Notes: a model not told the origin generated them from the letters alone. DNA of 64,000 nucleotides from Nitrosopumilus sp. (GCA_965214775.1 OZ243974.1:2368001-2432000), one strand, 5' to 3'. Shown: positions 13,919 through 52,101, counted from the stretch's first letter. Translations and numbers: made by a program.

Positions 13919-14036
13919 GTAACAGGATAGCCCCTGCCTAGGTAGCAATCAGGCACGAATCTGCCTGCAGCTGTGATTTTCATGCCTGATCTGCAAGGGA
14001 CGTAATTCCAACTCTAGGCAGGGGCTATCCTGTTAC
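13919..14036. mobile_element. IS66-type MITE, family GTAA(T/C)AGG
   Basis: 22-bp TIR; near-TSD CATGCTGT/CATGCTGC. Confidence 0.88.
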
Positions 14037-28427: not shown

Positions 28428-29287
28428 CAGTAACCGTCTGACTTGCAGTTTTTAGCGCAGGACATTACAATTGTTTGGACATGTGGCAATTATATGCTTT
28501 GTGTAATCGAGGAGGTTGTCCGGAATCCTTCCAGAAATTTACCGATAAGCGTATGGATCATGAGTGCAGGATGCGACAGCTTTGTGGATCACCGGATCGG
28601 CGTCTCTTCCCGTATCATGGGGGTTGTTTCCTAATTCACTTCATGCTGCCTCCACCGGTATCCCGAGATTTGCGGCACACTTGAGTCTGTTTAGCACCTC
28701 AAGGTTCCACCCTATTGCCTTGCACAAACCGAACCTTCGGCGGGTAGATGCCTTTCTGAACCTGCACATCAGCCTGTGGTTCTCTGCCTCCTCTGCACCA
28801 AAGATTCCCTCTATTGTTGCGCGCATCTTGTAGGATTCCGGATCAAACATCTTGGAAGCTTCCTTTCTGTGTTTCTTTTTGGTGTGGACTGCATTGGCCC
28901 TTAGTTTGATGTTTGGTTTCATTCCAGATTCCTTGAGGAGCCTTACGTTCTCATCTGAATCGTATCCCCTGTCGGCGTTGAAGATGCCGGAGAATCCTAG
29001 TCCGATCCTCTTGATCTTCTGCAACAGTGATCTTAGGACGGTGGTGTCTGCCATTTTGTCCGAGGTAATCTGGCATGCCAGGATTACCTGCAGGCCCAGT
29101 ACGGATGCCACATGCCACTTTAGGTACTGTTTGTAGGGCTTGGCCTTTCTCTTTCTTTCGGCCTTTTTTGCACCCGATTCGTGCGTAATATCGGCCTTTT
29201 TGTCCGTCTTTTTTGGCTTGAGATCCTTTCTCTTTTTGTTCTTGTCGTACCTGTCAGTAACGACGCCGGTGCTGTCGGCTGCAAGCT

Positions 29288-29368
29288 GTACAACTTCAGG
29301 TCCTATTTAAACCGCCTAGGAATCTAGGAAGTATTTGCTTGCCAGTATAAATGGGACCTGAAGTTGTA
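29288..29368. mobile_element. IS66-type MITE, family GTACAACTTCAGG
   Basis: TIR like the IS66 at 49997-52101; 8-bp TSD TGCAAGCT at 29280-29287 and 30116-30123 encloses MITE plus IS110; related copy at 40606-40687. Confidence 0.88.
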
Positions 29369-30114
29369 TCTATGTGTCGTGCTTATAAGGATTCCACGCG
29401 CAACGGTGTTGTGAAGTATGGCTTTGGCTGGGGGTCTCTTCCTGACAATCACAAAATGAAGGTCGGACACTTATCTATACGAGGATCTCCCTCAGTACCA
29501 TTCTTCATCCATTTGTCAGAACCGTTCTGCAGTTATCTATGTGTCGTGCTTATAAGGATTCCACGCGCAACGGTGTTGTGAAGTATGGCTTTGGCTGGGG
29601 GTCTCTTCCTGACAATCACAAAATGAAGGTCGGACACTTATCTATACGAGGATCTCCCTCAGTACCATTCTTCATCCATTTGTCAGAACCGTTCTGCAGT
29701 TACTAAACGAGGATCTCCCTCAACAACATCAACGCAGATTAAAGTTCTAACTGTAATGACAATAATAATGATGATGATGACGTTCGTTTCACACGCATGT
29801 CCCCTATGCACTGATTGAAGGCCATCTATTTCTTTAGCATACGAGGACTCCATGACGCACCTAGTGTTATCCGGAATCTTTGCAAACATCTCTCTTATCT
29901 CGCTGTTCCTGTTCCTTATTTTTGTATTCCTCAGGACCTTGTCGTCCTTGTCCATCACTGCAACCTGGATGGACTTCTTGTGCACGTCCAGACCGACATA
30001 CTGCTGCACCGCCTTTGATTTCACATATATCCTCTTTTTTGCGCTAATCTGTTTGTCTGCATTGCGATTTATCTTGGTACCATCTGAATTTTGTTTTTGA
30101 GACACATATGGTTA
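29367..30114 (-). mobile_element. Internally deleted IS110 derivative with a 167-bp right-end tandem duplication
   Basis: Ends TA-ACCATATGTGTC…GACACATAGA-TA; recombinase deleted after 'MESS'. Confidence 0.9.
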
Positions 30115-31142
30115 CTGCAAGCTTGAGTGCAGACATGTCAAATCCTGCAAGGCATCTGCGTGCAGTCTCTGATATCATCCCCTCAAGCCACTTGCCAGGA
30201 ATCTTTGGCAGGAACTTGCACAGGGTGACGTGGTCTGGCACCGGTTCGTCGTTCCAGCGAGGCAGTTTTAGAAAGTGCGCAAGACACTGCGTGTCACGGT
30301 ACGTCAGATCTAGGCAGACCATCAAAATGCACAGGCAGGCCAGCTTGTCACGGCTGTGGACTGTCGGCCGTCCCGGTCCGGAACTGACCTTCTTTACGGG
30401 ACATGGGTTCTCCACTATCAAAGAAACTATATTGGATAGGAGAAACACCATTTCTTGGGTGTGGGCAGCATGGTAATACTTCCAGTACCCATCGCGTCTC
30501 TTATGTTCCGTCATTAGAGAACCACGCCCGTTCTGATCAATATAGTGTAGACTCTAGAAAATTAGACTAAATTGCCGAATTAGGAAACAACCCCCGTATC
30601 ATGAGATCAAGGATCAAAAAAAAGGGGAATCAAAAGGTAACAGATCGATCTCTGCAAGTTCAGGCATGAATTCTGTCACTAATGAATGTCGATCAAATGG
30701 AATCTATGCCGAAAATCAGAAACGACTTCCAGAACCCGATCAGTTACGCCAAAAGACCGACGAGGAAAAAAAGTCAAAAAAGAAGTGCGCAAGACCTCTG
30801 GAATGTTTGCCAGGTGCGGGGGAAAAAGGGGCCTTGTTGTTGAGACCGCCTTTTTGTTGATAAAGGCCGGGCTTGACTCCACGATGTACGCATCGCCGCC
30901 ATGTCGCTTCTGTTGCAGTCACTCGGGCTGATCCTCAAGGCATTCTGCTACTATTACTACTATTACTACAAGACCTAGTCAACTGGGATTCAGTGCCGAT
31001 ACGGCGGAATCATCCGGCTGGCTGATGCCATGCAGTATGACATCAAAACACGGGTCATGGCCGTACAATGCGGGCCTGAGTGCGGATCCGTCTATATGTT
31101 TGCAGTCATTGCGCCGTGATTTTGCACAAATCACCCCGGAAA

Positions 31143-33332
31143 TCACACCCTAAAATCACGATTCCGGACAACGCCCTCTGTATTGCTATTGTTATTACCT
31201 TCCATGCAGTTTGTGTCGTTTTCGGTTCTGACAAAGTTTTCAAAATTTGATATGTGAAAATCCGACTTGTCATCCTTGGCTAATTTTTGATCAGAGAATC
31301 CAATACAGATCCTTGCTGCACCAACTGAATTACGAGGTTCTTCTGGAAGATACAGACGCTCATAAGCAAGAAGCCACTCTAGGGAATCAACCACCATGTC
31401 ATCAAGATACCCTAACGAGTCATACCCCAATTCGGCAATGCCATCTGCAAATCCTTTGATCGTGTTAGGGGTAGATTGCAGTCTCATGGGAAATCTCCAA
31501 CTCAGGTATGCCTCTACATTTTCCGGGGTTGCTTGCCAATCTCTGTAAGGAAAGCGGGGAATCTGGACGGGTGCCACAAAAACTTTTTTCTCCATGGTGA
31601 TTTTTTTGACAGCTTTCTCCCTTACTAATGCGTCAATTCTGTTTCTGATCATTTGTTCAGAAATGTCTCCCCCGATAAGCAAGGACACAATCTCCTTAAG
31701 ACGCTGTCTGCCGCCGCGAATCGTTCGTAAAATCAAACGTTCAACAACATGTCTCCCAAGTTTTTCAAGAATCGGCGCAACTATTCCGGTCTGTTCTGCA
31801 AGAACAGACATCTGCTCAAAAATCGGAATTGCTATTTCCCGTATCGGATTCATTTTTTCTTGATGGATAATTTCCCGCCATACTTCATCCCAATCAAACT
31901 TGTCATGCTCAAATCTTCCGGATTGATTTAAGGGGACTTGTGACAAGAGCGCCATGTCTTGAATATCTCCCTCTCTACTGGCTACGGCTTTTAGCAAAAA
32001 TACGTATTCGTTTCTCAATACCCCTACACGTAATTTGCCGAATTTAAGATAGTCTGCGGTTTGAATCATTACGTCAGATAATGACAAATCCTTCAACACC
32101 CTTTTTGTGAACAGATCAATTCTGCTTCCATTGGGATGGACAAGTATCTCGTCAGGATATAGACGCAAGTCTTCTTGCGAATATTCGGTTTCGATTATTT
32201 TTTCATACGCTAATTTTTCAGTAAGCACTTTACAAAGAATTTCAAAGTCCGATGGTTTTTCAACTATCAGGTCGCAATCCTTGGTGACTGCCTTTAGCTT
32301 TTTTAATCTCATATTTTCCCCGCCCATAAGAAATATCTGTAAGGGCTCGGCAAGACTGCTTCCTATGTCTTCAAATAGTGACGGTGCAGGTGTCGGTATG
32401 ACATACTGTTCGGGCTTTATCTCGTATAGTTCTGCCTTTGATACAAATTCATTCCATGGGAGAAATAGGCTTTCATTTTTTAATTTTTGTCTTCTAATAT
32501 ATCCTTCAACATCCAACCATGTGGATGATATCCCAAAAGACGATGCAGTTTCCCTTAGCCGCTTGACATCAACCCTGTTTTTATTATGGATATAAAATAC
32601 TGCAGACATGATTAAGCCCATTTTGTCATTGGCCTTGAACGATGCCAATACCGAATGAATGATTATGTCGTGAATGTCCAGGGGCTCATCTTGTTTGACA
32701 TAGTAATCATATGGGGATTCATACATTATTCCATTGTTCGTAAAAACAGAAAAAGCAGTCAGCTCTCCTTCGGTTATTTTTCCTTTTGTAACTTTTCTGA
32801 CAATTTTTTCCTTATCTGCATAGAGTACTTCCGCATCAGACTCGTAGAATCTTTCTCTTTCAGTTCTTAAGATTCTTGCAAAATCGACTAGTTCGGTTTT
32901 AGATGCGTCTATGTGCATTCTTTCAGGTGTTTTACCTGTGTGATTTTCATTCCTGCGGATTTCTTTTCGTATTATTCCAATTGCTTCAAGATCGGAGATT
33001 GCACGATAAACTGTAGATGTTGACAATCCCGTATTGGTTACAATCTCATTAATGGTCAGCGGGTCAATTAGATACGAAAATACAAGTTCATTGGAATCCC
33101 GCAAAAGATTTACCAAATTCCATTTCTGGGATATTTTTTTGAGCAGTATTGTTTTTGCACTTTCCTGTAATGCTATCGTCTTGCCTTCTTTTTTGATATA
33201 CCCGTCTTGAAGCAGTTTTTTTACTACCTCGTTGAATTGACATGTTTTTACTTTACTAATCTTCTTTAATGCTGCAATATCATGTGTGTTGTTGATGATT
33301 GCCTTGACTAAAGATATTGATGTACTATTCAT
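31143..33332 (-). CDS. Multi-domain wHTH plus nucleotidyltransferase (DUF6036-like) fusion
   Basis: HTH 'LTINEIVTNTGLSTSTVYRAISDL'; NTase 'GG…TKDCD', 'LKAVASREGDIQD'; further wHTH and a C-terminal domain. Confidence 0.75.
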   Translation of the reverse strand: MNSTSISLVKAIINNTHDIAALKKISKVKTCQFNEVVKKLLQDGYIKKEGKTIALQESAKTILLKKISQKWNLVNLLRDSNELVFSYLIDPLTINEIVTNTGLSTSTVYRAISDLEAIGIIRKEIRRNENHTGKTPERMHIDASKTELVDFARILRTERERFYESDAEVLYADKEKIVRKVTKGKITEGELTAFSVFTNNGIMYESPYDYYVKQDEPLDIHDIIIHSVLASFKANDKMGLIMSAVFYIHNKNRVDVKRLRETASSFGISSTWLDVEGYIRRQKLKNESLFLPWNEFVSKAELYEIKPEQYVIPTPAPSLFEDIGSSLAEPLQIFLMGGENMRLKKLKAVTKDCDLIVEKPSDFEILCKVLTEKLAYEKIIETEYSQEDLRLYPDEILVHPNGSRIDLFTKRVLKDLSLSDVMIQTADYLKFGKLRVGVLRNEYVFLLKAVASREGDIQDMALLSQVPLNQSGRFEHDKFDWDEVWREIIHQEKMNPIREIAIPIFEQMSVLAEQTGIVAPILEKLGRHVVERLILRTIRGGRQRLKEIVSLLIGGDISEQMIRNRIDALVREKAVKKITMEKKVFVAPVQIPRFPYRDWQATPENVEAYLSWRFPMRLQSTPNTIKGFADGIAELGYDSLGYLDDMVVDSLEWLLAYERLYLPEEPRNSVGAARICIGFSDQKLAKDDKSDFHISNFENFVRTENDTNCMEGNNNSNTEGVVRNRDFRV

Positions 33333-33550
33333 TTAATATCATTAAAACATAATTATATATAACGATTTATGATTTAATGATACTGATATAATAATACAAA
33401 ATAAACAGATGTGTTTGCTTTATCCACTTGAAAGCATTGGGCTGCCCTTCCTCACTTCCTCCTTTCCTACCACCATGTCTCCATATATGGCTGTTCTATC
33501 CCTCATCTCACGTCCAAACATTAGTCTGATGCGACCCACCGTAACCATAT

Positions 33551-34678
33551 GTGTCTCAAAAACAAAATTCAGATGGTGCCAAGATAAATGGCAATGCAAA
33601 CAAACAGATTACCGCAAAAAAGAGGATACATGTGAAATCAAAGACTGTACAAATACAACAACAACAGCAGTATGTCGGCCTGGACGTGCACAAGAATTTC
33701 ATCCAGGTCGCGGTGATGGACAAGGGCGGCAAGATGCTGAGTAACACAAGAGTCGACAACAATGACGACGAGATAAGAAAGATATTTTCAGGGATTCCAA
33801 AGAATGCAAAGTGCGTCATGGAGTCCTCTTCAGTATGGTACGGGCTGTTCAGGTTCATTTCAGACAGTCTCAAAAGGGACGTGATCCTCTCAAACCCGTT
33901 TGAGACCAAGGCCATTGCCACATCAAAGAAAAAGACAGACAAGGTCGACGCGCAGATTCTGGCAGATCTTCTCAGGGGAGGATACATATCTGCATGTTAC
34001 GTTCCCTCCGGCAAGACGGTACAGAACAGGCAGCTGACCAGGCACCGCGCAAAGACGATACAGTCAAGGACCGTACTAAAGAACCAGATACACGCAATAC
34101 TGCTGCAAAACAGGATACAGGTAAATGGGGATCCGTTCTCCAGACCGTGGATCTCAAGGGTGAGAGATCTGGACAACTTTAGGATAAATGACAAATTAAG
34201 CATAATTGACTCTATAAACGACAGAATAGTAGGCATTGACATGCGCATCAAGAGCGCAGTTGCCGACAATCCGGATGCAGTATTACTGCAGACGATTCCC
34301 GGGTTTGGCAGCTACACTGCACTGACCATGGCATCAGAGATAGACGGCGTTGACAGGTTTGCCGACTCACACAAGCTGTGCGCGTATGCCGGAATGGTGC
34401 CGTCTGTGAGAAACTCTGCAGACACCATCCACCATGGAAGGATAACAAAGAGGGGCAGCCCCATGATGAGGTGGCTCCTAGTGGAGTCAGTACACAGCCA
34501 CGTAAGACATGCGCCGTCAGACTCGCCGATATCTGTCTTTTACAAGAGGGTTGCAAAGAAGAGGGGAACGTCCAAGGCCGCAGTGGCTGCCGCATCCAAG
34601 ATGCTGCGCATATCATACTGGATGCTAAAGAAGAGGATGACCTTCAAGCAGTGCATAGGAGATGCGTGTGTGAAATGA
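33551..34678 (+). CDS. IS110 recombinase
   Basis: DEDD RuvC 'GLDVHK', 'MES', 'KTDKVDA'; C-domain 'IPGFG', 'PSVRNSA', 'GRITKRG'. Confidence 0.95.
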   Translation: MSQKQNSDGAKINGNANKQITAKKRIHVKSKTVQIQQQQQYVGLDVHKNFIQVAVMDKGGKMLSNTRVDNNDDEIRKIFSGIPKNAKCVMESSSVWYGLFRFISDSLKRDVILSNPFETKAIATSKKKTDKVDAQILADLLRGGYISACYVPSGKTVQNRQLTRHRAKTIQSRTVLKNQIHAILLQNRIQVNGDPFSRPWISRVRDLDNFRINDKLSIIDSINDRIVGIDMRIKSAVADNPDAVLLQTIPGFGSYTALTMASEIDGVDRFADSHKLCAYAGMVPSVRNSADTIHHGRITKRGSPMMRWLLVESVHSHVRHAPSDSPISVFYKRVAKKRGTSKAAVAAASKMLRISYWMLKKRMTFKQCIGDACVK

Positions 34679-34689
34679 ATGTTGGTATT

Positions 34690-34860
34690 ACCATTACAGT
34701 TAGAACTTTAATCTGCGTTAACCTAGTTGAGGGCGATCCTCGTTTTGTAACTGCAGAATGGTTCTGACAAATGGATGAAGAATGGTGCTGAGGGAGATCC
34801 TCGTATAGATAAGTGTCCGACCTTCATTTTGGAATTGTCAGGAAAGACCCCCAGCCAAAG
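34690..34860 (+). ncRNA. Predicted bridge/seek RNA (target loop ~34712-34757, donor loop ~34775-34828)
   Basis: Two GAGG-N5-CCTC hairpins flanked by matches to the target and the donor junction, each closed by a stem (TCTGC/GCAGA, ATGAAG/CTTCAT); boundaries approximate. Confidence 0.8.
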
Positions 34861-35079
34861 CCATGCCTCACAACACCGTTGCGCGTGGAATCCTTATAAA
34901 CGTGACACATAGATAACTGCAGAATGGTTCTGACAAATGGATGAAGAATGGTGCTGAGGGAGATCCTCGTATAGATAAGTGTCCGACCTTCATTTTGGAA
35001 TTGTCAGGAAAGACCCCCAGCCAAAGCCATGCCTCACAACACCGTTGCGCGTGGAATCCTTATAAACGTGACACATAGA

Positions 35080-35195
35080 TAATAGGTTAGCCCTTGCCTA
35101 GGCAGCAATCAGGCATGAATCTGCCTCTAGTTACGATTTTCATGCCTGAACAGACGGGGGTGTGACTTTAACTCTAGGCAGGGGCTAACCTGTTA
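35080..35195. mobile_element. IS66-type MITE with an IS110 inserted at both termini
   Basis: (G)TAATAGGTTAGCCC…GGGCTAACCTGTTA(C). Confidence 0.88.
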
Positions 35196-36570
35196 TCTAT
35201 GTGTCATGTTTATAAGGATTCCACGCGCAACGGTGTTGTGAGGCATGGCTTTGGCTGGGGGTCTTTCCTGACAATTCCAAAATGAAGGTCGGACATTTAT
35301 CTATACGAGGATCTCCCTCAGCACCATTCTTCATCCATTTATCAGAACCATTCTGCAGTTACAAAACGAGGATCGCCCTCAACTAGGTTAACGCAGATTA
35401 AAGTTCTAACTGTAATGGTAATACCAACATTCATTTCACACACGCATCTCCTATGCACTGCTTGAAGGTCATCCTCTTCTTTAGCATCCAGTATGATATG
35501 CGCAGCATCTTGGATGCGGCAGCCACTGCGGCCTTGGACATTCCCCTCTTCTTTGCAACCCTCTTGTAAAAGACAGATATCGGCGAGTCTGACGGCGCAT
35601 GTCTTACGTGGCTGTGTACTGACTCCACCAGGAGCCACCTCATCATGGGGCTGCCCCTCTTTGTTATCCTTCCATGGTGAATGGTGTCTGCAGAGTTTCT
35701 CACAGACGGCACCATTCCGGCATACGCGCACAGCTTGTGTGAGTCGGCAAACCTGTCAACGCCGTCTATCTCTGATGCCATGGTCAGTGCAGTGTAGCTG
35801 CCAAACCCGGGAATCGTCTGCAGTAAGACTGCATCCGGACTGTCGGCAACCGCGCTCTTGATGCGCATGTCAATGCCTACTATCCTGTCGTTTATGGAGT
35901 CAATTATGCTTAATTTGTCATTTATCCTAAAGTTGTCCAGATCTCTCACCCTTGAGATCCACGGTCTGGAGAACGGATCCCCATTTACCTGTATCCTGTT
36001 TTGCAGCAGTATTGCGTGTATCTGGTTCTTTAGTACGGTCCTTGACTGTATCGTCTTTGCGCGGTGCCTGGTCAGCTGCCTGTTCTGTACAGTCTTGCCG
36101 GAGGGAACGTAGCATGCAGATATGTATCCTCCCCTGAGAAGATCTGCCAGAATCTGCGCGTCGACCTTGTCTGTCTTTTTCTTTGATGTGGCAATGACCT
36201 TGGTCTCAAACGGGTTTGAGAGGATCACGTCCCTTTTGAGACTGTCTGAAATGAACCTGAACAGCCCGTACCATACTGAAGAGGACTCCATGACGCACTT
36301 TGCATTCTTTGGAATCCCTGCAAATATCTTTCTTATCTCGTCGTCATTGTTGTCGACTCTTGTGTTGCTCAGCACCTTGCCGCCCTTGTCCATCACCGCG
36401 ACCTGGATGAAATTCTTGTGCACGTCCAGGCCGACATACTGCTGCTGTTGTTGTTGTATTTGTACAGTCTTTGATTTCACATGTATCCTCTTTTTTGCGG
36501 TAATCTGTTTGTTTGCATTGCCATTTATCTTGGCACCATCTGAATTTTGTTTTTGAGACACATATGGTTA
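35194..36570 (-). mobile_element. IS110 element, second full-length copy (recombinase 35431-36561)
   Basis: Near-identical inverted copy of 33542-34915. Confidence 0.93.
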
Positions 36571-36609
36571 CAGTCCGTTTACACATCATCAAAATCTGCC
36601 AATCTCGAA

Positions 36610-38385
36610 TCAACCTTCTGCGGGGCTAACCTGCACCCACGCGCCGTCCCGGATCTGCCACACTGCATAGTCCGTACGCAGCCTGTCTCCTGCATCGTTA
36701 AACTCGATGTTGCTTCCGCTTGCACCATCGTACTCTTGCGCCACCGAGACGATCCCGTCTGCCACGTCCGGCGCAAAGCCGGTCTGGCCGTCAAGTACTG
36801 CCTCTCCTATCAGTCGCATGGCATCATACGCAAAGAACGCATACACGCTTGGCTGCCTGCCGAGGACCTCGACGAGCCGCGCCTCCACGTCTTCTGTCAC
36901 GTCGCCGTACGGAACGGTGGGCTGGACGGATGTAAACTCCACGGCCTCTGCAAACCGCAGTGCCTCCGCACTGCCTGCCGGTACCGTGTTGGCATCGGCG
37001 CCAAACCATCTGACGCCTGCCAGCACATCATGCTTTGTGGCCTCCTCTAAAAAGTCATAGGTCTCCTCAAAGCCTATAAACAGGACTGCGACCTTGTCTG
37101 CGCCATGGATGCCGACCTGTCCGGACACTGTCTCTGAGAGCATCCAAATGTGTTGATCAAACTGGCCTGATGCGTCATACAGCACAGGCTCTGAGAACAT
37201 AACTGTTCCTTCTCCATTCTCCTCCTCTACGTCTGCCATGTGTCTCTCATCGGACTCGGGTGATGTATCTGCCTCGACAAACGCCATACCTGTGTTGTCA
37301 ATGAGATCAGTAACCCATATGCCGTCCCTTCCTGCGGGAACCACGACCTTTATTCCCTCGATTGCCATCAGCCGGGCAAGCGCCTCGCCGTGGCCGCGGT
37401 GATCAGATATCATGCGCATCAGCGAGTCTCCCGCTGTGGCATAGTCTGTCACGACAGAGCAGCAACTAAAAAGCAGCATGCCGTTCTCATCGGCATAGTC
37501 TATGACATCTCTCTCAAAGATGTCAATTGAGGGGCCAACGACCAGCCGGACTCCCTGCTCCCTTAGCTCTGCCACGCCCTCCAGCTCCCTGCTGCCGTCT
37601 GTACCTGTATCGTAAACTATGACCTCAAGATACCACGGATGGCCGCCTGCCTCCAGCTTTGCGTTAAAGTCGTCGGCTGCCGTTTTTGCTGCATCTGTTA
37701 TGTCCTGGCCGTATCCTGCGGCGCCTCCGCTGATGGGTGCAAGCAGTCCCACTGTAACTGTGTGCATCTCCCAGTTCTGTATGGTCTCATAGGCTGCCAG
37801 ATCATAGCCTATCTCAGAGAGCGTTTCGTACGTGGAGGGCTTTAGACACGTGGGCATTGCAGAGTCCCTCAGAAACGGCTCCCTCGGCGCGTTGCACTGT
37901 ATGGCAGAAAGGAAGACGCCGTCCCTGTACTGCGTTGCCGGCGGGTCGTGTCGTACAGCATACGTGCCGCTGCCAAAGACGTACCCGTCATGCAGGACCA
38001 GCAGCGTGTGCTTGACCTCGTCGCGGCCGGTGGCCGGATTCAGGAACACATAGTATATCCTGGTCTCCCCGTCTGCATCAAGCTCCGCGTTTATCTGCTC
38101 TAGCGTCTTGTCCGGACGTATGCTGTCCAGCGCATTCGTACCAACAAGGGACGGATTGGTCCCGTGTGCCAGCACCAGGCCGTCCCTGCCAAGCACAAAC
38201 GGATAGTGCTCCCTGTCACTTTGCATTGTTATGGCCTCAAGTCCGGACTCTTTGTACGTCTCTATGGCAGAGATGATCTGGGCCCGCGCCGGATCCTGGT
38301 AGGCGTCTTCTGCATATGCAATGCCGCCTGCAGCAGGCATCAATGCCGCAAGTACTGCCAGCGCAACTATCACAGTCTTTTCCAA
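36610..38385 (-). CDS. Secreted Cache-domain plus LivJ-like substrate-binding protein
   Basis: Signal peptide; 'YPFVL…LAHG…NPATGRDEVK…VFGSG'; 'VGLLAPISG', 'AYDA', 'GASG…F…GDR'. Confidence 0.85.
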   Translation of the reverse strand: MEKTVIVALAVLAALMPAAGGIAYAEDAYQDPARAQIISAIETYKESGLEAITMQSDREHYPFVLGRDGLVLAHGTNPSLVGTNALDSIRPDKTLEQINAELDADGETRIYYVFLNPATGRDEVKHTLLVLHDGYVFGSGTYAVRHDPPATQYRDGVFLSAIQCNAPREPFLRDSAMPTCLKPSTYETLSEIGYDLAAYETIQNWEMHTVTVGLLAPISGGAAGYGQDITDAAKTAADDFNAKLEAGGHPWYLEVIVYDTGTDGSRELEGVAELREQGVRLVVGPSIDIFERDVIDYADENGMLLFSCCSVVTDYATAGDSLMRMISDHRGHGEALARLMAIEGIKVVVPAGRDGIWVTDLIDNTGMAFVEADTSPESDERHMADVEEENGEGTVMFSEPVLYDASGQFDQHIWMLSETVSGQVGIHGADKVAVLFIGFEETYDFLEEATKHDVLAGVRWFGADANTVPAGSAEALRFAEAVEFTSVQPTVPYGDVTEDVEARLVEVLGRQPSVYAFFAYDAMRLIGEAVLDGQTGFAPDVADGIVSVAQEYDGASGSNIEFNDAGDRLRTDYAVWQIRDGAWVQVSPAEG

Positions 38386-38590
38386 TAGATCATGTGGGAT
38401 GTGATCTGCTTTAAGTCTTAAACATCACAAAAGATGACCCGAAACCGTCAAAAGCCGTACGAATTTTTCAAGTGATTTCACAGGCATCTGTATTTTGGTG
38501 GTTTTTGAGATGATATTTTGTGCAAATTCGTTCATGCACGCACTCAGACTGCCAATTTCGAATCGATTCGGCAAAAACAAAAGTCTTAAT

Positions 38591-38682
38591 GTATGTGGTC
38601 ACGTCCCCTTGCGAGCTAGGCATGAAAATCATAGACATGCATGCCAACTCGTGCCTGATTGGCAGGGTAGGTGACCTCGTAC
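38591..38682. mobile_element. IS66-type MITE, family GTATGTGGTCAC
   Basis: TIR and 8-bp TSD GTCTTAAT. Confidence 0.9.
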
Positions 38683-38728
38683 GTCTTAATCAAACTTCGC
38701 TTGTCTGCCAATTGTGACCAGACTGCCA

Positions 38729-39013
38729 TCATTTCTGCGTTGCAAATTTCTTCCGTTCCTGGATGATCTCAATCTCTACTGTTTCAAGCGGATCCTCGAC
38801 TTGGTTTCTTTTGATCGAAAACATCTTTGGCTTTTCAAAATCATCAGTACAATCCGGACATGCATACACTAGCACCCTGTGTTCGTTTGGCGCTTTGGGA
38901 TTGGATAGTCTGGGATAGTACACCAATCTTGCCCCACAATCAACACAGTACCTGTTGGCCCTTCTGGTCCTGACCAATGCAAACCTCCTGCATTCTATAC
39001 TCTCTGCGATCAA
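38729..39013 (-). CDS. Small Zn-finger protein
   Basis: CVDC…CPDC. Confidence 0.75.
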   Translation of the reverse strand: MIAESIECRRFALVRTRRANRYCVDCGARLVYYPRLSNPKAPNEHRVLVYACPDCTDDFEKPKMFSIKRNQVEDPLETVEIEIIQERKKFATQK

Positions 39014-39510
39014 TTATTAGATCTATGTGGTCTAATTTGATACACAAAATAGTATGAATTGACAACTGATCGGACCGGGGGTTCAGGCATGAATTTTGTT
39101 ACTGGTAAATGCCAATCAAACGGATTTTACGCCTAAAACCAGAAACGGCTTTTAGAACCTGCTGCTCAGTTGTGCAAAACAGAGGGATGATCCAAAATCA
39201 GGAACGTGCAAGCCGTTGTCTTGGTTTTTCTGTAAATTTGTCAGGCAGTTTGCCACAGATGGTTTTGCGTTTTGCTTTTTTGTTTGATGCAGGTCCGTTT
39301 TTTATGGGCGATGACCGAACTTGCCAACTTTGAATCAACTTGGGGGTTTCTGCAGTGCATCACAAAGCAAGCTGGCCTGCCTGTCAATGAACGCAAAAGG
39401 CAGCACCGGCGCTGTTGTGCCCAGTATGGAGCCGGGTTTGATCGACTGCCTTGGTTCCTGACATCTTCTTTCTTTCTTTCTTTCGTTCTTCTTTGCATCA
39501 TCCAAACCGC

Positions 39511-40392
39511 ATCAGTTGGGTTTTGACATGCAACACCTTTTGTATTTTTTTTCCAGACCCGCACGGACACGGATCATTTCTGCCTCGTAGTGGTCATGTC
39601 GTATGGCATGTTGTCATACGGAATGTCTTTCTGCCTGTGGGGTTTCTAATCCCTATTGACAAAGATCTCAAGTGGATCCATTGAGACGCATCTTGTTGCT
39701 AAAATGCTTGAGTTGTTTGTGTGTTTTTCGATCAAATCATCATACTCGAAAAAGTCATTTGTGACAAACCCGCTTTCAAGCGATCTTATCAGATACTTTA
39801 AGGTGTCTGGGTCTCTCAAATCAGTCAAAGAGTCCATCAGAAAGGTTCTTTTGTCTATGTCCTGCTCTATTTGTATCGCATCACGTATCGTCTTGATGAT
39901 TTTTTGCTTTTCTTGCGGGTGTTCTAACGCGATTATGACCAGCGCACTGGCAGCACAGTATCTTGAATATATGCTGGCAGAGGACAGCGACACCACATGG
40001 CAGAGAGAATCCACTGCCTTTGGCCCCATGTATGCCAAGGCGTTTGGAATATTTTCGTTAACCTCGTTGCTATACGTTAACTTGGGATACTGAACAAGCG
40101 CCGAGTTTATTGCAGTCTGTGCCCTCTTTGTGCCAATTTTTGCAAGTATGTGCAATGCACATGTCGGGATCCCCGGCCAGTACGTACCCCAGTCGTCGTC
40201 ATGGTATCTTTGATACGTTGACATCTCTGCCAGCATCTCAAACGATCTGTCATCTTTTATTATGATCTCAAGGATCGGCCCGGGGGTACCTGTGCCGTGA
40301 AACTTTAGGTGGTCTATTGCCTCTTCCCAGTCCAATACAGAAAGATAATGTTGCAACGCTATTATTGGTTTTGATGTTGGTATCTTATTCAT
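39511..40392 (-). pseudogene. HEAT-like (DUF1186-like) plus SEC-C protein, SEC-C out of frame
   Basis: ORF 39646-40392; 'GRNDPCPCGSGKKYKRCC' downstream in another frame. Confidence 0.75.
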
Positions 40393-40738
40393 ACCCTGAA
40401 TGGTGATCCGAAATCAGAAACCGTACGAATTTTTCAAGTAATTTCACAGATAACTTGCATTTTGTTGGTGTTTTGAGCCGTTCTATGCAAATTCGTTCAC
40501 AAATAATCAGTCTGCTAATTTCGAATCAATTCTCTATCATGATCCTCATCATCGCGTTGTATCTGTTGTCAAGGTACACGAAACGCGATTTTATTATGAT
40601 TCCGAGTATAACATCAGATCCTATTTATGTTGGCAAGCAAATACTTCCTAGATTCCTAGGCGGTTTAAATAGAACCTGATGTTATACGATCAGGGCATCA
40701 CAGGTTAGAATATAACACGAACGCAGGAAAATCATGGC

Positions 40739-41056
40739 ATGCGGGCAGATGTTGTAAAGGGAGGTCCAAAATTTGCAAAGTTTTTCAAAGGGTTAGACAT
40801 AGAATCCAAGCGATACAAAGAGATCACAGGTTCGTTTGATCTTCTAAAGGAGGATGTGTCGCGGGGAAACAGAATACCCAAGGATAGATGGCCCAAGTGC
40901 TACATCAAAGCATATGACACCAATAATTTGTACAGATATTCCCTTACAGATGGATGGCGTATGATCTATTGCATATATTCACGAGGAGGCAACATCGTAT
41001 GCAATATTTTAGAATCATTCGATCATAAAGGGTATGACAGGCGGTTTGATTACTAG
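40739..41056 (+). CDS. RelE-like toxin
   Basis: 'NLYRYSLTDGWRMIY…DHKGYDRRF'. Confidence 0.7.
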   Translation: MRADVVKGGPKFAKFFKGLDIESKRYKEITGSFDLLKEDVSRGNRIPKDRWPKCYIKAYDTNNLYRYSLTDGWRMIYCIYSRGGNIVCNILESFDHKGYDRRFDY

Positions 41057-41057
41057 G

Positions 41058-41360
41058 CTATTTCAGAGTTACAGACGCATCGTCTAGGGCGTCGGTCTTT
41101 TCGTTGGAGAATATCCAAAATACCTCGTTATTGTCATATGTTATTTTTTTTGATGCCTCCAAATATTCCAAGACAGTAGTCAGAGTGCCGTACTGCATGG
41201 CCTTTGGAAGCCTCTTCCAGAGCTGTGTCTTTGAAAGAACCCGGTGTTCTAGAAGGACATCCTCCACCATGAGTATAGAATCCAAGGTGGGACTGTGCCT
41301 GTTTTTAATTTTGGAATTTGTTTCAGATATCGATTCCTTAGAAACACTGCCTTGGCTCAT
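41058..41360 (-). CDS. Small wHTH protein
   Basis: 'SPTLDSILMVE…KTQLWKRLPKAMQYGTL…LEYL'. Confidence 0.7.
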   Translation of the reverse strand: MSQGSVSKESISETNSKIKNRHSPTLDSILMVEDVLLEHRVLSKTQLWKRLPKAMQYGTLTTVLEYLEASKKITYDNNEVFWIFSNEKTDALDDASVTLK

Positions 41361-41408
41361 TATACACTGTTGTATGTACAAAGTTGTATATAACAATACT
41401 GCATATCA

Positions 41409-41548
41409 TAGTTTGTTGTATGACTTCCTTTTTCGTCAAAAAACTCCTGGTTTCGATCACAGATAGATCCGAAATCAACTGTGATTTTTATCTGGACTTA
41501 TAATTTAGGACGAATTCAAGTAAAAAAATCGAGTTATGCAACAAACTA
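41409..41548. mobile_element. MITE derived from the IS5 element at 45894-47133
   Basis: TAGTTTGTTGTATGAC…GTTATGCAACAAACTA. Confidence 0.8.
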
Positions 41549-41555
41549 GATGTTG

Positions 41556-42136
41556 TATCTATGTGTCGTGCTTATAAGGATTCCACGCGTAACGGTGTTG
41601 TGAAGTATGGCTTTGGCTGGGGGTCTCTTCCTGACAATCACAAAATGAAGGTCGGACACTTATCTATACGAGGATCTCCCTCAGTACCATTCTTCATCCA
41701 TTTGTCAGAACCGTTCTGCAGTTACTAAACGAGGATCTCCCTCAACTACATCAACGCAGATTAAAGTTCTAACTGTAATGACAATAATAATAATGATGAT
41801 GACGTTCATTTCACACGCATGTCCACTATGCACTGACTGAAGGCCATCTATTTCTTTAGCATACGAGGACTCCATGACGCACCTGGTGTTATCCGGAATC
41901 TTTGCAAACATCTCTCTTATCTCGCTGTTCCTGTTGCTTATTTTTGTATTCCCCAGGACCTTGCCGTCCTTGTCCATCACCGCGACCTGGATGGACTCCT
42001 TGTGCACGTCCAGGCCGACATACTGCTGCTCCGCCTTTGATTTCACACATATCCTTTTTTTTGCGCTAATCTGTCTGTTTGCATTGCCTTTTATCTTGGT
42101 ACCATCTGAATTTTGTTTTTGAGACACATATGGTTA
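41556..42136 (-). mobile_element. Internally deleted IS110 derivative, second copy
   Basis: Same deletion breakpoint as 29367-30114; inserted at G|TA-CAACATC. Confidence 0.9.
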
Positions 42137-42402
42137 CCCTTGTTTTGGCTCAGAGTAACAGCTCGGGCTCTGGAAGTTCAGGTGTGAGTTTTGCCACCTC
42201 GGAGGCCCATGACATATTCGTGCCTGAAATCAGGAACAGCTTCCAGAGCCCGAGCTGTTACCTCAAAGACTTATGCTCATTGCTATATGGATGTCAAGAC
42301 TGATGCTGTCTGCGTTTGGAATCTGTTGGACCATCAGTTACAAGGCTGGATGATCGCCGGTTTTGGATTTGTTATAAATAGGCCACCCATGATTTGTTTT
42401 TC

Positions 42403-42547
42403 AATATATAAAAAACTAGCAGCCAGCTTGCCTATGAATATATAAAAAACTAGCAGCCAGCTTGCCTATGAATATATAAAAAACTAGCAGCCAGCTTGCC
42501 TATGAATATATAAAAAACTGCCAACCAGCTTGCCTATGAATATATAA
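42403..42547 (+). repeat. 4 x 34-bp tandem repeat, each with TATATAAA
   Basis: AATATATAAAAAACTAGCAGCCAGCTTGCCTATG; ends ~25 bp before ATG 42572. Confidence 0.92.
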
Positions 42548-42571
42548 TGAAACTCATTATGATCACAAAGT

Positions 42572-44086
42572 ATGGCAAAAGAGTTGGATCTGCGCAATTC
42601 GAATCCCTGGTGGAGGAATCCTGCAAGTATTCTAGACGATAAAAAAATCATAGAGTGGGAAGAATCTCAGATAAAGTATGATCCAAGACTTGGGAATGCA
42701 ATTGAATATGATTTTGAGGCAGGTAATACCGTAGTTTACACCCTGCGCGGACCTCGACAGGTGGGCAAAACAACCCTGGTCAAATTACAGATCAGGGATT
42801 TTTTAGAAAAAGGAACAAACCCGTGGAATATCATGTACTATTCGCTTGATCTGGCAAATACCCCACAGGACGTAGTCGACGTGGTTGAGACCTATTTGAA
42901 AGTCAGTAGCAGGCAAAGAGGTGAAAAACGATCCTATCTGTTTTTAGACGAGGCATCATCTGTGGCAGATTGGCAAAAAGGCATCAAATGGTTGGTGGAT
43001 GGTGACAAGCTAAGGAATTGTACGGTTGTGGTAACGGGTTCACAGGCAACTAACATCCGCAATGCAGCAGAACGGCTACCGGGCCGCAGGGGGATCATAG
43101 ATGATGCCTATGACCGGGTTTTACTCCCAATGAAGTTTGCAGAATACGCATCGCTGCTAAACGAGGACGTGAGAAAACTAGTCGAAAAAAACGATTTGCT
43201 CCCATTTGGAAACAGGGAGGAAATTTTTAGAAAATTAGTTGCCGGAGAAATTGATGAAAGACTAGACAAGATAAACGCATATCAAAATGAAACAAACGAC
43301 CTGCTAATGGAATACATGATGACTGGCGGCACTCCCAGGGTAATAGATGAAAAGATGAAAACAAACACAATTCATGAAGGCATATACGCAAACTATTTGG
43401 AAGGGATTAGGGGACAATGGAGTGAACTCGGAAAAAATGAAACCATGTTAAAGCAATTTGCCGGTGCCATAATCAAAAGCATGACCGGTCATATCTCCTG
43501 GAACGGTCTTGCCAAAGAATCCGCGCTGGGAGGCGGGGGCACGGCACAGGAGTATGCATATGCCCTGTATGATCTGTCCGTACTGTCTGTAATCCACCTC
43601 TACGGGGAACAAAGGAAAATTCCCCTGATCCAAAAAGACAGAAAGTTCTATTTCCACGACCCGTTTTTTGCACACATATTCAACGGCTGGATGAGTCCGG
43701 GAGGGAATTTTGAGGCCAGCCTCCGATATCTTGAGGATGAGGCAAATCAAAGCAGGCTGATTGAGGGAATTGTTGCCGATCATCTTATCAGACTGGCCTT
43801 TTCGATGAGCAAAAAGAAGCAGACCCATGACTACTATAACCACGTTTTCTATTGGAAGGATGACAAGGGGCGTGAGGTGGACTTTGTACTTTATGACGGG
43901 GACAGGATGGAGGTTCCAATCGAGGTAAAGTTCAGAAACAAACTGAACCCAAGGGATCTGGCCCCGCTGGTGGGCTTTCTTGGCAAGACAGGCAGCAAAA
44001 AGGGATTGGTCGTTTCAAAGACTGCCTTGGATGAAAAGGCAGACTATGTTGTGGTTCCTGTCTCTGTGTTCTTGCTGCTGATTTGA
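42572..44086 (+). CDS. AAA_14 ATPase plus DUF4143 PD-(D/E)xK protein
   Basis: 'GPRQVGKTT', 'FLDE', 'VTGS', 'TGGTP', 'KFYFHDP', 'EVDFV…IEVK'. Confidence 0.92.
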   Translation: MAKELDLRNSNPWWRNPASILDDKKIIEWEESQIKYDPRLGNAIEYDFEAGNTVVYTLRGPRQVGKTTLVKLQIRDFLEKGTNPWNIMYYSLDLANTPQDVVDVVETYLKVSSRQRGEKRSYLFLDEASSVADWQKGIKWLVDGDKLRNCTVVVTGSQATNIRNAAERLPGRRGIIDDAYDRVLLPMKFAEYASLLNEDVRKLVEKNDLLPFGNREEIFRKLVAGEIDERLDKINAYQNETNDLLMEYMMTGGTPRVIDEKMKTNTIHEGIYANYLEGIRGQWSELGKNETMLKQFAGAIIKSMTGHISWNGLAKESALGGGGTAQEYAYALYDLSVLSVIHLYGEQRKIPLIQKDRKFYFHDPFFAHIFNGWMSPGGNFEASLRYLEDEANQSRLIEGIVADHLIRLAFSMSKKKQTHDYYNHVFYWKDDKGREVDFVLYDGDRMEVPIEVKFRNKLNPRDLAPLVGFLGKTGSKKGLVVSKTALDEKADYVVVPVSVFLLLI

Positions 44087-49928: not shown

Positions 49929-49996
49929 CTGAGAGTTGATTCGAAATTAGCAGACTCTGATTATTTGTGAACGAATTTGCATAAAGCAGCTCAAAA

Positions 49997-52101
49997 GTAC
50001 AACTTCAGATCCTTTTTATACTGACTAGGGAACTTTTTGCCCGGAACTTTTTGATCCTTCCGCATCTGCTGTGACAGACCCGCTACATCACACCACACGT
50101 CCCTTGTATATGCAAGACCGGCAGCGCGCAGACAACAGATTATTGGCAGACAACAGATTATTGGCAGACGGCACCTGCAGGAAACCAGCATTGTCAGATT
50201 TGCCTGGCGTTGTTGACTGGCAGACTTGCCTGCACAGTCGGATTCTTTGACATGAAGCTACGGGTTACGCCGTCCCGTAGACGCCAGACGGATCATGTTG
50301 TTGTAGGAGCTGCTGCTGCTGGTACGACGGCCGTCCGGTTCCGGCGTACCGCTCCTCTGCTGCTGCCTGCGTCATCATCGACTACAGGCCGCCACACCGG
50401 CGGCGGCCCGGGACACTCAAAGACGCTGTATCTTGTACCGTCCGTATTGACAAGCAAGGACAGCAGGCGCGCATCATTATCATCATCTCTTGCATCTGCA
50501 AAGATATCCCAGACCGGATTCCGCAGGTATTTCAAGAGTCCGCCGGCAGGATGTATATTCTGCTTGCGACATGTCATCGAGAACGTCAGCAGCGCAGAAG
50601 CCGTCTTTCTTCCCCCGTCAGTTACGATCTTGTGGCGTGCATTGCGTTGTGGTATGATCCCGTCGCGTATGCACCGCTCCGTATCGTTGTTGTGCAGCGG
50701 CATTCCCCGATGCGCCAGACACGTAAACATGTTGGGCATGGCGTTTAGCAGGTGTGTACGCACGTGAACGTCCTCATACGGGTTGATTATTTTGTATACT
50801 TCCCTGGAAAGATCCATGTATGTAAGCGGCGCAAGCGTCTTGATTTTATCTATCTTCCTGTAGAATTCCAGCAGCAAGTCATACCTTTTCTCATCATCGC
50901 CTTCGGGCATCTTTACTGCAAGCTTTTCTGCATACGCCAGAAGGTGCCTCCAACACCTCTGGATTATATCAAAGAACAGCTTGTACTGGGCCAGTTCGTC
51001 TACGACTATGGGAGTCTTGGGATCCAGCCATCCAAAGTGCGTGTGCAGTACCTCGGAGGACCGGGAATCTGCAAAGACCACAAAGCACGCCCCCTCGCAG
51101 TTGAGCACCCAGACGTACCCCGTGTGCCCGTCGCCGCGCTTAAAGCCGGTCTCGTCCATCTGTATCCACGGCCTGCCCGCAATGAATGACTGTATGCGTT
51201 GTATCATGTTTTGTTGAATCGCCTCTGCCACTGTGTGCCGGGCGGCAGTCACGGTATTTGGGGCCATCCTGAATCCAAACATATACTGAAAGTACTCTGC
51301 AATGTCCTCGTCTGTGTTTCCCTTCTCAAAGAACATCATGATTAGAGAGAGTGAGACGGGCCCAAGTGACGTGCCGCTTAGAAACGGGGTGGCCGCTACA
51401 TGCACGGTATTGCACTGTGGACACACCGCGTTTTGGATGATGGCATTGGCAGTGAGCATGCGCATAAAACCGTCCAGGTCGTTGACAAGCTTGTGGATCG
51501 GCTTGAGCATCCGTAACTGGATGTTGCACCTTGGGCATATTTTGGAGCCAAGATCGTACCTTAATGTCATGGATGGCCGGTTGCCGTGCGATGTACCATG
51601 GTGTCCGCACGGAGGGCCGCGTTTCTTGCCCCGAGCAGCATCGCCTGGACTGCCGCCGGGATCCTCGCCCCTTTTCTCCCTGAACTTTCTTCTGGCATCA
51701 TTGTGTAATGACGGCGTGGACGTGGGCATGTTGGGACTCTCGTACAGGGCAAGCCTTGCCCGGAGCTCGGAGTTCTCCTCTTTGATGTCGGAGTTCTCCT
51801 TTTCCAGCTCGGAGATCTTCTCATCCCGCTCCTTGATCATGACAAGTGCCTTTGCAAGATCCATATGGTGTGCAGGCGTAGATTTGGAGTCCATGTGTTA
51901 CATCAAACAGGCATGATCAAAAAAGATTTCCATCGAAATTCTTTGACTAGGATGCCGATAATGGATCACCCCAGCAAATTCCAATCCTGCAATGACTGGT
52001 CACAAATGTCTGATGTTCAGCCATGTTCGCAGGGGCATCTGATCATAAGATGCTGCCCAAAAATGTTTGACTGTCAGTATAAAAAGGACCTGAAGTTGTA
52101 C
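49997..52101 (-). mobile_element. IS66-family single-ORF element, transposase 50293-51894
   Basis: 29-bp TIR GTACAACTTCAG(A/G)TCCTTTTTATACTGAC; 'MDETG', 'QRCWRHL', 'HNNDTERCIR'; no TSD. Confidence 0.92.

Follow-up and report, generated by a model that had tools for sequence, protein, structure and literature searches.

A 64,000-nucleotide stretch of DNA from Nitrosopumilus sp. (GCA_965214775.1 OZ243974.1:2368001-2432000; the whole stretch is hereafter termed the window) carries copies of an insertion sequence that is very probably an RNA-guided element of the IS1111 type, with guide hexamers matched to the terminal repeats of several IS66-type transposon families. The guide of each copy covaries with the DNA that flanks it, and occupancy of the repeats falls as mismatches to the guide rise. 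An RNA would be made from the right end of the element, be bound by the recombinase and direct insertion, and copies that have lost the recombinase gene would be moved in trans. Judged from its sequence, the element is a member of the IS1111 group of the IS110 family, resident in a Nitrosopumilaceae-like ammonia-oxidizing archaeon. The single 2.83-Mb contig containing the window, to which all 'genome' coordinates refer, also encodes archaeal AmoA (E 3e-116), and the closest relatives of the recombinase come from metagenome-assembled genomes labelled Nitrosopumilaceae, Nitrosopumilus or Cenarchaeum, with those of Archaeoglobi and other archaea farther off. An initial annotation had described an archaeal IS110 element whose bridge-RNA guide is naturally reprogrammed to hit different IS66-type termini; its observation is confirmed and its interpretation is supported as essentially right, with the amendments given below.

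Copies of the element and their junctions

Four copies lie in the window, two of full length and two with internal deletions:

33542..35081, + strand: copy A, comprising a full unit (33542-34915) followed by a second 166-bp right-end module (34916-35081), with a TA core at both junctions
35194..36570, - strand: copy B, a full element with its open reading frame (ORF) at 35431-36561, RNA at 35277-35413 and guide at 35383-35390
29367..30114, - strand: copy C, a 579-bp deletion derivative (30114-29534) followed by a second 167-bp module (29533-29367)
29618..29754, - strand: RNA of copy C, with the guide TGATGTTG at 29724-29731
41556..42136, - strand: copy D, a 579-bp deletion derivative with RNA at 41640-41776 and guide at 41746-41753

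The junctions of all four copies were read, and both the TA-bounded ends listed in the initial annotation and its reconstructed empty sites and 8-mers at the right-end scaffold proved accurate. All are bounded as TA/ACCATATG...GACACATAGA/TA, the slash marking the junction. In the window, the terminal motif ACCATATGTGTC is present four times where 0.36 would be expected, and the scaffold TCTGCGT-N8-TTGAGG four times where 0.08 would be. Copies A and B (36570-35194) share the guide TAACCTAG and occupy the reconstructed sites G-TA/ATAGGTTA and G-TA/ACAGGTTA, respectively; copy C combines the guide TGATGTTG with the site G-TA/CAACTTCA, and copy D the guide TGATGTAG with the non-repeat site G-TA/CAACATCT. 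Given that copies A and C end in a tandem 166/167-bp right-end module, the unit lengths are 1372 bp (copy A) and 579 bp (copy C).

Throughout the genome, 16 copies have a readable guide. There are five intact full-length copies (98.3-99.9% DNA identity), one further full copy split by an insertion, seven deleted copies of 579 bp (six at 99.7-100% identity and copy C at 96.4%), three other deleted copies and many solo ends.

Covariation of guide and flank

The 8-mer highlighted in the initial annotation is the 5' strand of the target loop, the first of two loops in the predicted RNA, whose 3' strand reads N5-6-TA-A(C). Its identification as a guide strand is supported, with the amendment that pairing in effect covers 6 nt (+3 to +8) rather than 8. 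In copy A, these strands are as follows:

34719..34726, + strand: right-target guide TAACCTAG, bases 1-6 of which pair with flank positions +8 to +3 (AGGTTA)
34743..34751, + strand: left-target guide, TTTTG-TA plus AC, where AC corresponds to the first two bases of the left end and just G-TA fits real left flanks

Across the 16 copies of this genome, guide bases 1-6, once reverse-complemented, agree with flank +3 to +8 at all six positions in nine copies and at five in four, with the other three scoring 4/6, 2/6 and 0/6. A finding of copies at sites unrelated to their 8-mer would have counted against the initial annotation; two of the 16 fail to fit in register, and 13 match at five or six of six. 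The mean match of a copy to its own guide is 5.00 of 6, compared with 3.05 for pairings with the guides of other copies (n=176). Guide class and target class segregate completely (6/0 and 0/8, p=3.3e-4), in that CAAC sites hold all eight copies with TGATGT(A/T)G guides and none of the six full copies of the TAACCTAG and TAAACTAG types. The guide also ranks first for variability of the 214 8-nt windows of the non-coding right end when 17 close relatives are compared, with five of its eight columns variable against 37/222 overall (p=0.004), and the adjoining scaffold is invariant.

The covariation extends beyond this genome. In the sister genome G021, where six of 10 covariance-model matches were parsed for a guide, the guide TATCCTAG is found at ATAGGATA, an AGGATA end, and a deleted copy with the guide TGATGTAG at CAACATCA. 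Orthologues were scored with a fixed geometry and an offset of at most 1, after two duplicated-module pseudo-hits and the truncated L033 had been dropped and identical guide-plus-flank pairs collapsed, which together reduced 36 matches to 32 pairs. The 32 distinct pairs give a mean right-guide match of 5.22/8, compared with 3.33 (sd 1.08) for non-cognate pairs; scores of at least 6 are reached by 18/32 cognate and 31/978 non-cognate pairs, and none of 10,000 permutations reaches the observed mean. Four orthologues with low scores (L028, L029, L036 and L039) nonetheless contain perfect 6-7-nt matches at a larger offset. The left guide matches the left flank at 4.03/6, compared with 1.54 (sd 1.10) for non-cognate pairs (30 elements, 830 pairs); this statistic omits five of 35 rows (L032, L033, L034, L051 and L052) from which the guide strand or end was not cleanly extracted. 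When read through the model alignment, L032, L034 and L052 score 6-8/8 for the right guide and L051 4/8. The claim that guide and target covary is thus borne out in the genome itself, in its sister and in the orthologue pairs.

A sister sub-family (L112-L114 in G021, L028-L031, and genome 1100964-1101097) displays the converse pattern, with covariation of the left guide with the left flank, pairing GGGAAC with CGGAAC-TA and GGGAAG with AGGAAG-TA, while the common part of its right flank is just CTG. The motif CCTAGGAAG-TA-CTG resembles the tip of yet another MITE (miniature inverted-repeat transposable element); it also stands to the left of the deleted copy del_1198049 and, reversed, at the ends of an insertion inside a solo module (genome 114990).

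Repeat families and their occupancy

The genome is crowded with IS66-type elements and MITEs. In a survey of archaeal insertion sequences, the highest content given (14.95%) is that of a Nitrosopumilus genome (PMC13343696). Five repeat families, F1 to F5, were distinguished, all of which start with GTA:

F1: 108-bp MITEs, GTAA(C/T)AGG(T/A)TAGCCCC; hexamer AGGTTA, or AGGATA in F1b
F2: CAAC repeat, in 2.1-kb elements with 8-bp duplications and also in 76-bp MITEs; hexamer ACATCA
F3: GTAACAG(C/G)TCGGGC
F4: GTANGAGTTTACCCC, about 200 ends, with 1.55-kb partners; hexamer AGTTTA
F5: GTA(T/C)GAGGTCACC, with 1.63-kb partners; hexamer AGGTCA

Members within or beside the copies in the window, together with unoccupied relatives, are:

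35082..35193: F1 MITE of 112 bp, with both terminal repeats occupied (copies A and B)
29287..29366: F2-type 76-bp MITE entered by copy C, with the 8-bp duplication AGCTTGCA intact across MITE plus copy C
42155..42261: F3 MITE (GTAACAGCTCGGGCTCTGG...) adjoining copy D; elsewhere in the genome, F3 ends bear solo right-end modules
49996..52101: unoccupied F2 element of 2.1 kb with the terminal repeat GTACAACTTCAGGTCC and a transposase ORF at 50293-51894 (- strand)
1444-1558 and 13919-14034: unoccupied AGGATA MITEs (genome 2369448 and 2381923)

IS66 elements typically have terminal repeats that open with GTA and are flanked by 8-bp duplications. The transposase encoded by the CAAC-repeat (F2) element matches DDE_Tnp_IS66 (PF03050, E 4.8e-18), which substantiates the IS66 assignment of this family, and the F4 and F5 partners are tblastn relatives of this transposase at 22-26% identity. 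For the F1 MITE, the likeness to IS66 consists of its GTA start and 8-bp duplications alone, and a search of the genome for an autonomous partner found none. Such duplications were read from the flanks of F1 and F2 copies that are unoccupied, and two occupied sites confirmed them. The flanks of copies A, B and C are IS66-type terminal repeats as the initial annotation had them, while that of copy D just resembles a repeat start.

The hexamers of F1, F1b, F4, F5 and F2 are exact reverse complements of five guide variants: in the same order, TAACCTAG, TATCCTAG (as a guide seen only in G021), TAAACTAG, TGACCTAG and TGATGTAG. One copy with the guide TAAACTAG adjoins an F4 end (TA/CGAATTTACCCC). 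AGGTTA has 18 single-step neighbours, three of which are repeat hexamers, and these are the three single-step guide variants seen (1 in 816 by our own arithmetic). Part of what the initial annotation called reprogramming reflects how far related lineages have diverged, as opposed to changes in the guide of a single element.

Occupancy follows the guide. Counting ends that begin with GTA or are occupied, the genome contains about 200 F4, about 70 F5, 68 F3, 55 F1 and about 90 F2 ends. Three of five F1 ends are occupied at one guide mismatch, 2/31 at two and 0/19 at three or four (3/5 at one mismatch versus 2/50 at more, p=0.0036), and six of 24 F2 ends are occupied at one mismatch versus 1/66 at more (p=0.0012, or p=0.004 without one of the six that is a mere right-end remnant). 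A preference for guide-matched ends, as the initial annotation implied, is hence observed. Its two sister AGGATA MITEs do exist and are unoccupied, but this hexamer is not immune, given that one such end is occupied at genome 634047.

The right-end remnant is a 22-bp right-end-like sequence (…ACACACATAGA-TA; genome 924443-924466) that adjoins an F2 repeat and lies directly after an unrelated coding region.

Recognition by protein or by DNA structure is one alternative to a guide: the recombinase itself, or a hairpin-forming inverted-repeat structure, would pick the target, and the match between 8-mer and flank would be coincidental. Other IS1111-type elements are described as favouring palindromic targets such as repetitive extragenic palindromes and bacterial interspersed mosaic elements (REP/BIME; PMC12288879), and all occupied perfect-hexamer sites of the present element (10/10, covering two hexamers) lie in a terminal-repeat context. 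Coincidence is nonetheless scarcely credible in view of the permutation result, of single-base guide variants that each equal the hexamer of a different repeat family, and of the correspondence between these variants and the repeat hexamers among the neighbours of AGGTTA.

Insertion geometry and proposed half-site recognition

Because all IS66-type repeats begin with GTA, the element enters directly after these three bases, ahead of the fourth, and its right end always points inward. A TA precedes the left end in 27/28 junctions and follows the right end in the listed copies; the element makes no target duplication of its own, and TA is the core dinucleotide at both junctions. To the left of the core just a G is conserved (27/28 left junctions), and positions -2 to -5 are at background composition, though the left guide reads UUUU or UUUA. 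As the left guide matches only G+TA, recognition would be one-sided; the left flank is whatever DNA lay beside the victim, which accounts for the reduction of left-guide pairing to G+TA. No additional pairing of the RNA with repeat bases from +9 onward was seen by eye.

At two sites, those of copy C and full_635534, the 8-bp duplication of the victim is intact (8/8) across victim plus insertion, which identifies them as simple insertions into a pre-existing MITE.

Copies A and B occupy the two tips of a single 112-bp MITE and are inverted relative to each other (window 33542-36570); their outer flanks (GACCCACC and AGTCCGTT) do not form a duplication, suggesting rearrangement between copies.

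The association could in principle have arisen by descent, had an IS110 copy entered one IS66-type element once and then travelled as its passenger. Several deleted copies do adjoin near-identical F2 repeats, and a host duplication spans the insertion at just two of six testable sites. Such a history is nevertheless highly improbable: the hosts differ (a 76-bp MITE, elements of 2.1-2.4 kb and a MITE type ending TCCGTAAAATCA), two sites lack any repeat (CAACATTC and CAACATCT), copies A and B take up the two ends of a single MITE, and one junction rule covers five repeat families as well as distant orthologues at non-repeat sites.

Recombinase and element ends

The full unit encodes a single recombinase:

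33551..34678, + strand: recombinase ORF of 375 aa, its GTG start preceded by 7 nt of left end

The product contains DEDD_Tnp_IS110 (PF01548, E 2.7e-24) and Transposase_20 (PF02371, E 6.9e-22) domains and resembles the solved bridge recombinases of ISCro4 (9t56, E 2.9e-11) and IS621 (8wt6, E 1e-9). On these domain matches, the IS110 identity proposed in the initial annotation stands. In 19/23 orthologues the reading frame is open from a GTG at left-end position 8, leaving only 7 nt of the left end non-coding, and the non-coding right end measures about 235 nt from stop codon to element end. Sub-terminal inverted repeats are located 4 nt inside the left end (TATGTGTC) and 2 nt inside the right end (GACACATA). 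A short left and a long right end, sub-terminal inverted repeats and a bridge RNA in the right end are described for the IS1111 group (PMC11208160).

The right end also contains a TATA-like box that may face the left end across a circle junction:

34894..34900, + strand: TTATAAA box, a candidate archaeal TATA box, 16-22 nt before the element end with the core included

A run of at least six A/T bases (a TTTATAAA-like box) is found at this position, 16-23 nt before the end with the core TA counted, in 25/25 distinct right ends. The circle junction would place the centre of the box about 26 nt upstream of the left-end GTG, a spacing that fits archaeal TATA boxes, making a junction promoter for a leaderless mRNA possible.

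Predicted RNA and proposed mechanism

The non-coding right end is predicted to encode a bridge/seek RNA with two successive internal loops, each divided by a hairpin. In copy A, its core and the strands of its second loop are placed as follows:

34696..34832, + strand: predicted bridge/seek RNA core (covariance model, 128.3 bits), target loop followed by donor loop
34781..34789, + strand: donor loop 5' strand AATGGTGCT, the reverse complement of which contains ACCAT (left end)
34803..34813, + strand: donor loop 3' strand GTATAGATAAG, which contains ATAGATA (right end plus core)

An alignment of 18 diverse right ends was used for RNAalifold and for the covariance model. RNAalifold returned 22 pairs, 10 of them with compensatory change, and the model found 36 matches in the window and related loci. 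Paired cells amount to 88.2% over 33 distinct matches, compared with 78.4% in shuffles (0/500 reach the observed value) and 33-44% with slid partners. Helices 1, 2, 4 and 5 are 94-98% paired in these matches; the central hairpin of the target loop is only 49.7% paired in the model alignment because its register shifts. It folds in each single sequence except the truncated L033 and the two duplicated-module pseudo-hits, with stems including GAGG/CCUC, GGGG/CCCC, GUGG/CCAC and GGGU/ACCC. Applied to 20 relatives, the model detected the RNA in one (G007, weakly), as against 22 matches in the genome itself, and this search yielded no extra close guide-flank pairs.

The donor loop tracks the ends of the element itself. 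Its 3' strand (AU(A/G)GAUA) equals the element's own right end plus core in 32/35 elements, with strand and end covarying between A and G (ATAGATA, ATGGATA), and Archaeoglobus-type relatives contain AUAGGAG, AUGGUAG and AUGGGAG with ends that match by eye. The 5' strand covaries with the left end in L026 (ACCGT), L036 (ACTAT) and L032/L050/L061 (ATCAT); about 10 others have a one-base mismatch.

Under the proposed mechanism, the 1372-bp unit would be moved by bridge-RNA-guided recombination. The first six bases of the target loop 5' strand would pair with the top strand at +3 to +8 to the right of the core, and the 3' strand (UUUUG-UA-AC) would have the same sense as the left flank and core, continuing into the opening two bases of the left end. 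The donor loop 5' strand would pair with the left end (ACCAT), its 3' strand corresponding to right end plus core (AUAGA-UA). The hexamer would set the victim: AGGTTA for F1, AGGATA for F1b, AGTTTA for F4, AGGTCA for F5 and ACATCA for F2. Deletion derivatives lacking the recombinase have retained the ends and the RNA region, with guides of their own and sites that fit those guides.

Several observations weigh against guide-directed insertion. The sole clear misfit to the guide rule is int_1533382 (genome 1533382-1535919; guide TAAACTAG), which scores 0/6 and has an atypical TC right junction: an insertion of about 1.16 kb separates element positions 938 and 937, the right end reads ...ATAGA-TC and is followed by unique DNA with a small basic ORF, and the flank has one match in the genome and is not a repeated element. 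Another copy, del_2797099, scores 2/6 in register and fits after a 1-nt slip; flank positions +1 and +2 rarely pair with the guide; and L040 scores 4/8. On the left, G+TA alone is matched by this element and its two closest relatives, compared with 4-5/6 in orthologues. Among 66 empty G-TA-NN-hexamer sites with the two hexamers occupied at perfect sites, 28 lie in a terminal-repeat context and 38 outside it; the restriction of occupancy to terminal repeats may reflect a determinant beyond the nine specified bases or the removal by selection of insertions at other places. Outside repeats there are two deleted copies, whose hexamers are imperfect. The differences in occupancy could also partly reflect the age of repeat sub-families. 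The duplication of the victim is not intact at four of the six testable sites, perhaps as a result of later rearrangement between copies. A search of Rfam 15 with window 29000-43000 (E up to 1) gave no relevant match, merely four chance microRNA/pseudoknot matches on MITE hairpins, and 20 sequencing-run rows containing part of the element included no RNA run.

Logan contigs of four runs over window 40900-42800 contained neither the empty site nor a usable joint, as the contigs break at repeats; variant letters inside the guide in these contigs stem from cross-mapping of other copies.

Deletion derivatives lacking the recombinase

Aligned deletion junctions reveal three independent internal deletions, in element coordinates:

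about 290 to 1075: the 579-bp form
247 to 1012: common to del_922784 and del_2797099
238 to 1019: del_1198049

All three have removed the recombinase while leaving both ends and the complete RNA region in place. Despite sharing a deletion and being 90.3% identical, del_922784 and del_2797099 do not have the same guide (TGATGTAG versus TGACCTAG). Six sites hold almost identical copies of the 579-bp form, which has a further site in G021; these six copies resemble each other more closely than do the full copies, indicating a very recent spread. This form is found at sites fitting its own guide and never at sites fitting the guide of the sole resident element that encodes a recombinase. The pattern suggests that deleted copies would be moved in trans by a resident recombinase and targeted by their own RNA. 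They are not recent derivatives of the full copies: their N-terminal remnant is just 68% identical to the resident recombinase at the protein level.

These same derivatives admit another history, in which the guide is real and the deleted copies are inert relics moved by a full-length master with the guide TGATGTAG, since lost or absent from the assembly, with neither trans-mobilization by the resident TAACCTAG element nor any rule that a copy uses its own RNA. The genome contains no full-length copy with this guide, the divergence of the N-terminal remnant agrees with such a master, and perfect segregation of guide and target classes is what separate histories would be expected to produce. 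A lost master is judged unlikely, if far from negligible: the six copies are 99.7-100% identical over 579 bp and thus spread very recently, the deleted form occurs in G021 at another site, the donor ends and donor-loop 3' strand (ATAGATA) of the deleted copies equal those of the resident element, and the donor-loop 5' strands differ by one base that lies outside the ACCAT pairing.

A broader proposal may be advanced, tentatively and at less than even confidence: in parasites that no longer encode an enzyme, guide RNAs may evolve as a heritable targeting organ, the RNA may prefer the DNA that encodes it, a 6-nt half-site plus G+TA may suffice, and point mutations in the guide may allow hops between IS66-type families. 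Such a preference could arise if transcription from the conserved right-end TATA-like box crossed the circle junction into the left end, every excised circle thereby producing a guide of its own.

A separate right-end module

The last 166/167 bp of the element (ACTGCAG...ATAGA-TA), comprising the donor loop and right end, behave as a separate module. It is present in tandem in copy A (34750-34915 and 34916-35081), copy C (29700-29534 and 29533-29367) and mini_1166534, stands alone at three F3 repeat ends, and is precisely missing from del_1198049 (genome positions of these cases: 69298, 114824, 2249425, 1166534 and 1197640). Its left boundary is the GTA/AC of the DNA encoding the left guide, a mimic of the left junction; full_635534 uses another internal junction, CGTA/TAGATAA, and L026 and L032 likewise contain partial duplications of the right end, located at internal TA sites. 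Tandem duplication at a guide-matched internal site was considered and rejected, as the site GTA/ACTGCAGA matches the guides at just 1-2/6. Given this poor match, duplication is tentatively attributed to the GTA-AC mimic of the left junction.

Relation to known systems

RNA-guided targeting by IS110 and IS1111 elements is established, with programmability, natural target diversity and a right-end RNA all covered in the main reports (PMC11208160, PMC11187229), and archaeal IS110 recombinases have been catalogued (10.1101/2024.06.21.599552). The seekRNAs of ISEc11, ISKpn4 and ISPa11 co-purify with the transposase and are reprogrammable, as described by Siddiquee et al. (2024, PMC11187229), whereas the present element is known from its sequence. 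It shares with these IS1111-type seekRNAs a non-coding region downstream of the transposase and a top-strand match that lies 5' of the bottom-strand match (PMC11187229). One-sided target logos are ascribed in that account to mis-set element ends (PMC11187229); unlike that case, the one-sidedness is real here, because left flanks are unrelated apart from G+TA (27/28 junctions). Similarities to IS621, as characterized by Durrant et al. (2024, PMC11208160), include a homologous recombinase and a two-loop target/donor RNA that reads both strands around a core dinucleotide. In IS621, however, the RNA is encoded in the left end, compared with the right end here, as in the IS1111 group (PMC11208160); in addition, the core here is TA and left-guide pairing is reduced to 3 nt.

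The deleted and solo forms recall ISPpu9/MITEPpu9, parts of which, bounded by ends, are reported alone, in tandem or linked to a transposase (PMC12288879), just as the 166-bp module here is tandem, solo or missing. The non-autonomous units of ISPpu9 use the transposase in trans according to the same study (PMC12288879). Its module is described as bearing a small RNA that hitch-hikes and is dispensable for transposition (PMC12288879), in contrast to the derivatives here, which retain the actual guide RNA and have their own guides.

With respect to insertion into other transposons, the closest parallel is provided by the bacterial elements IS4321 and IS5075, which reportedly insert in the terminal repeats of other transposons (Tn21) at a fixed position and orientation; their target is said to lie well inside a 38-bp repeat, so that both flanks are conserved. 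The likeness lies in a DEDD recombinase of the IS110 family, sub-terminal inverted repeats and the use of one position and orientation in the repeat of another transposon. Here, in contrast, the crossover falls 3 nt in from the outer edge of the repeat, so that the right flank alone is specified, the hosts are archaeal IS66-type elements and MITEs, and several guide variants coexist in one genome. A literature search found no paper linking bridge RNAs with IS66 ends or Nitrosopumilus, and none describing a within-genome guide series matched to several victim families, one-sided recognition or enzyme-less derivatives with varying guides, though supplementary tables might list such elements.

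Implications

The copies amount to a natural allelic series, in which one scaffold is combined with five guide hexamers that are 1-3 bases apart and each fit a different family of transposon ends. As bridge/seek-RNA recombinases are being developed as programmable insertion tools, natural rules of guide change and minimal pairing are of practical interest; the present element suggests that as few as three bases may pair to the left of the core. If it is confirmed that derivatives without the enzyme maintain and diversify a guide of their own, this would bear on whether guides act in cis or in trans. More broadly, the parasitism of transposons on transposons, of the kind associated with IS4321/IS5075 and Tn21, is extended to archaea and to IS66-type elements, in an ammonia oxidizer with a very repeat-rich genome.

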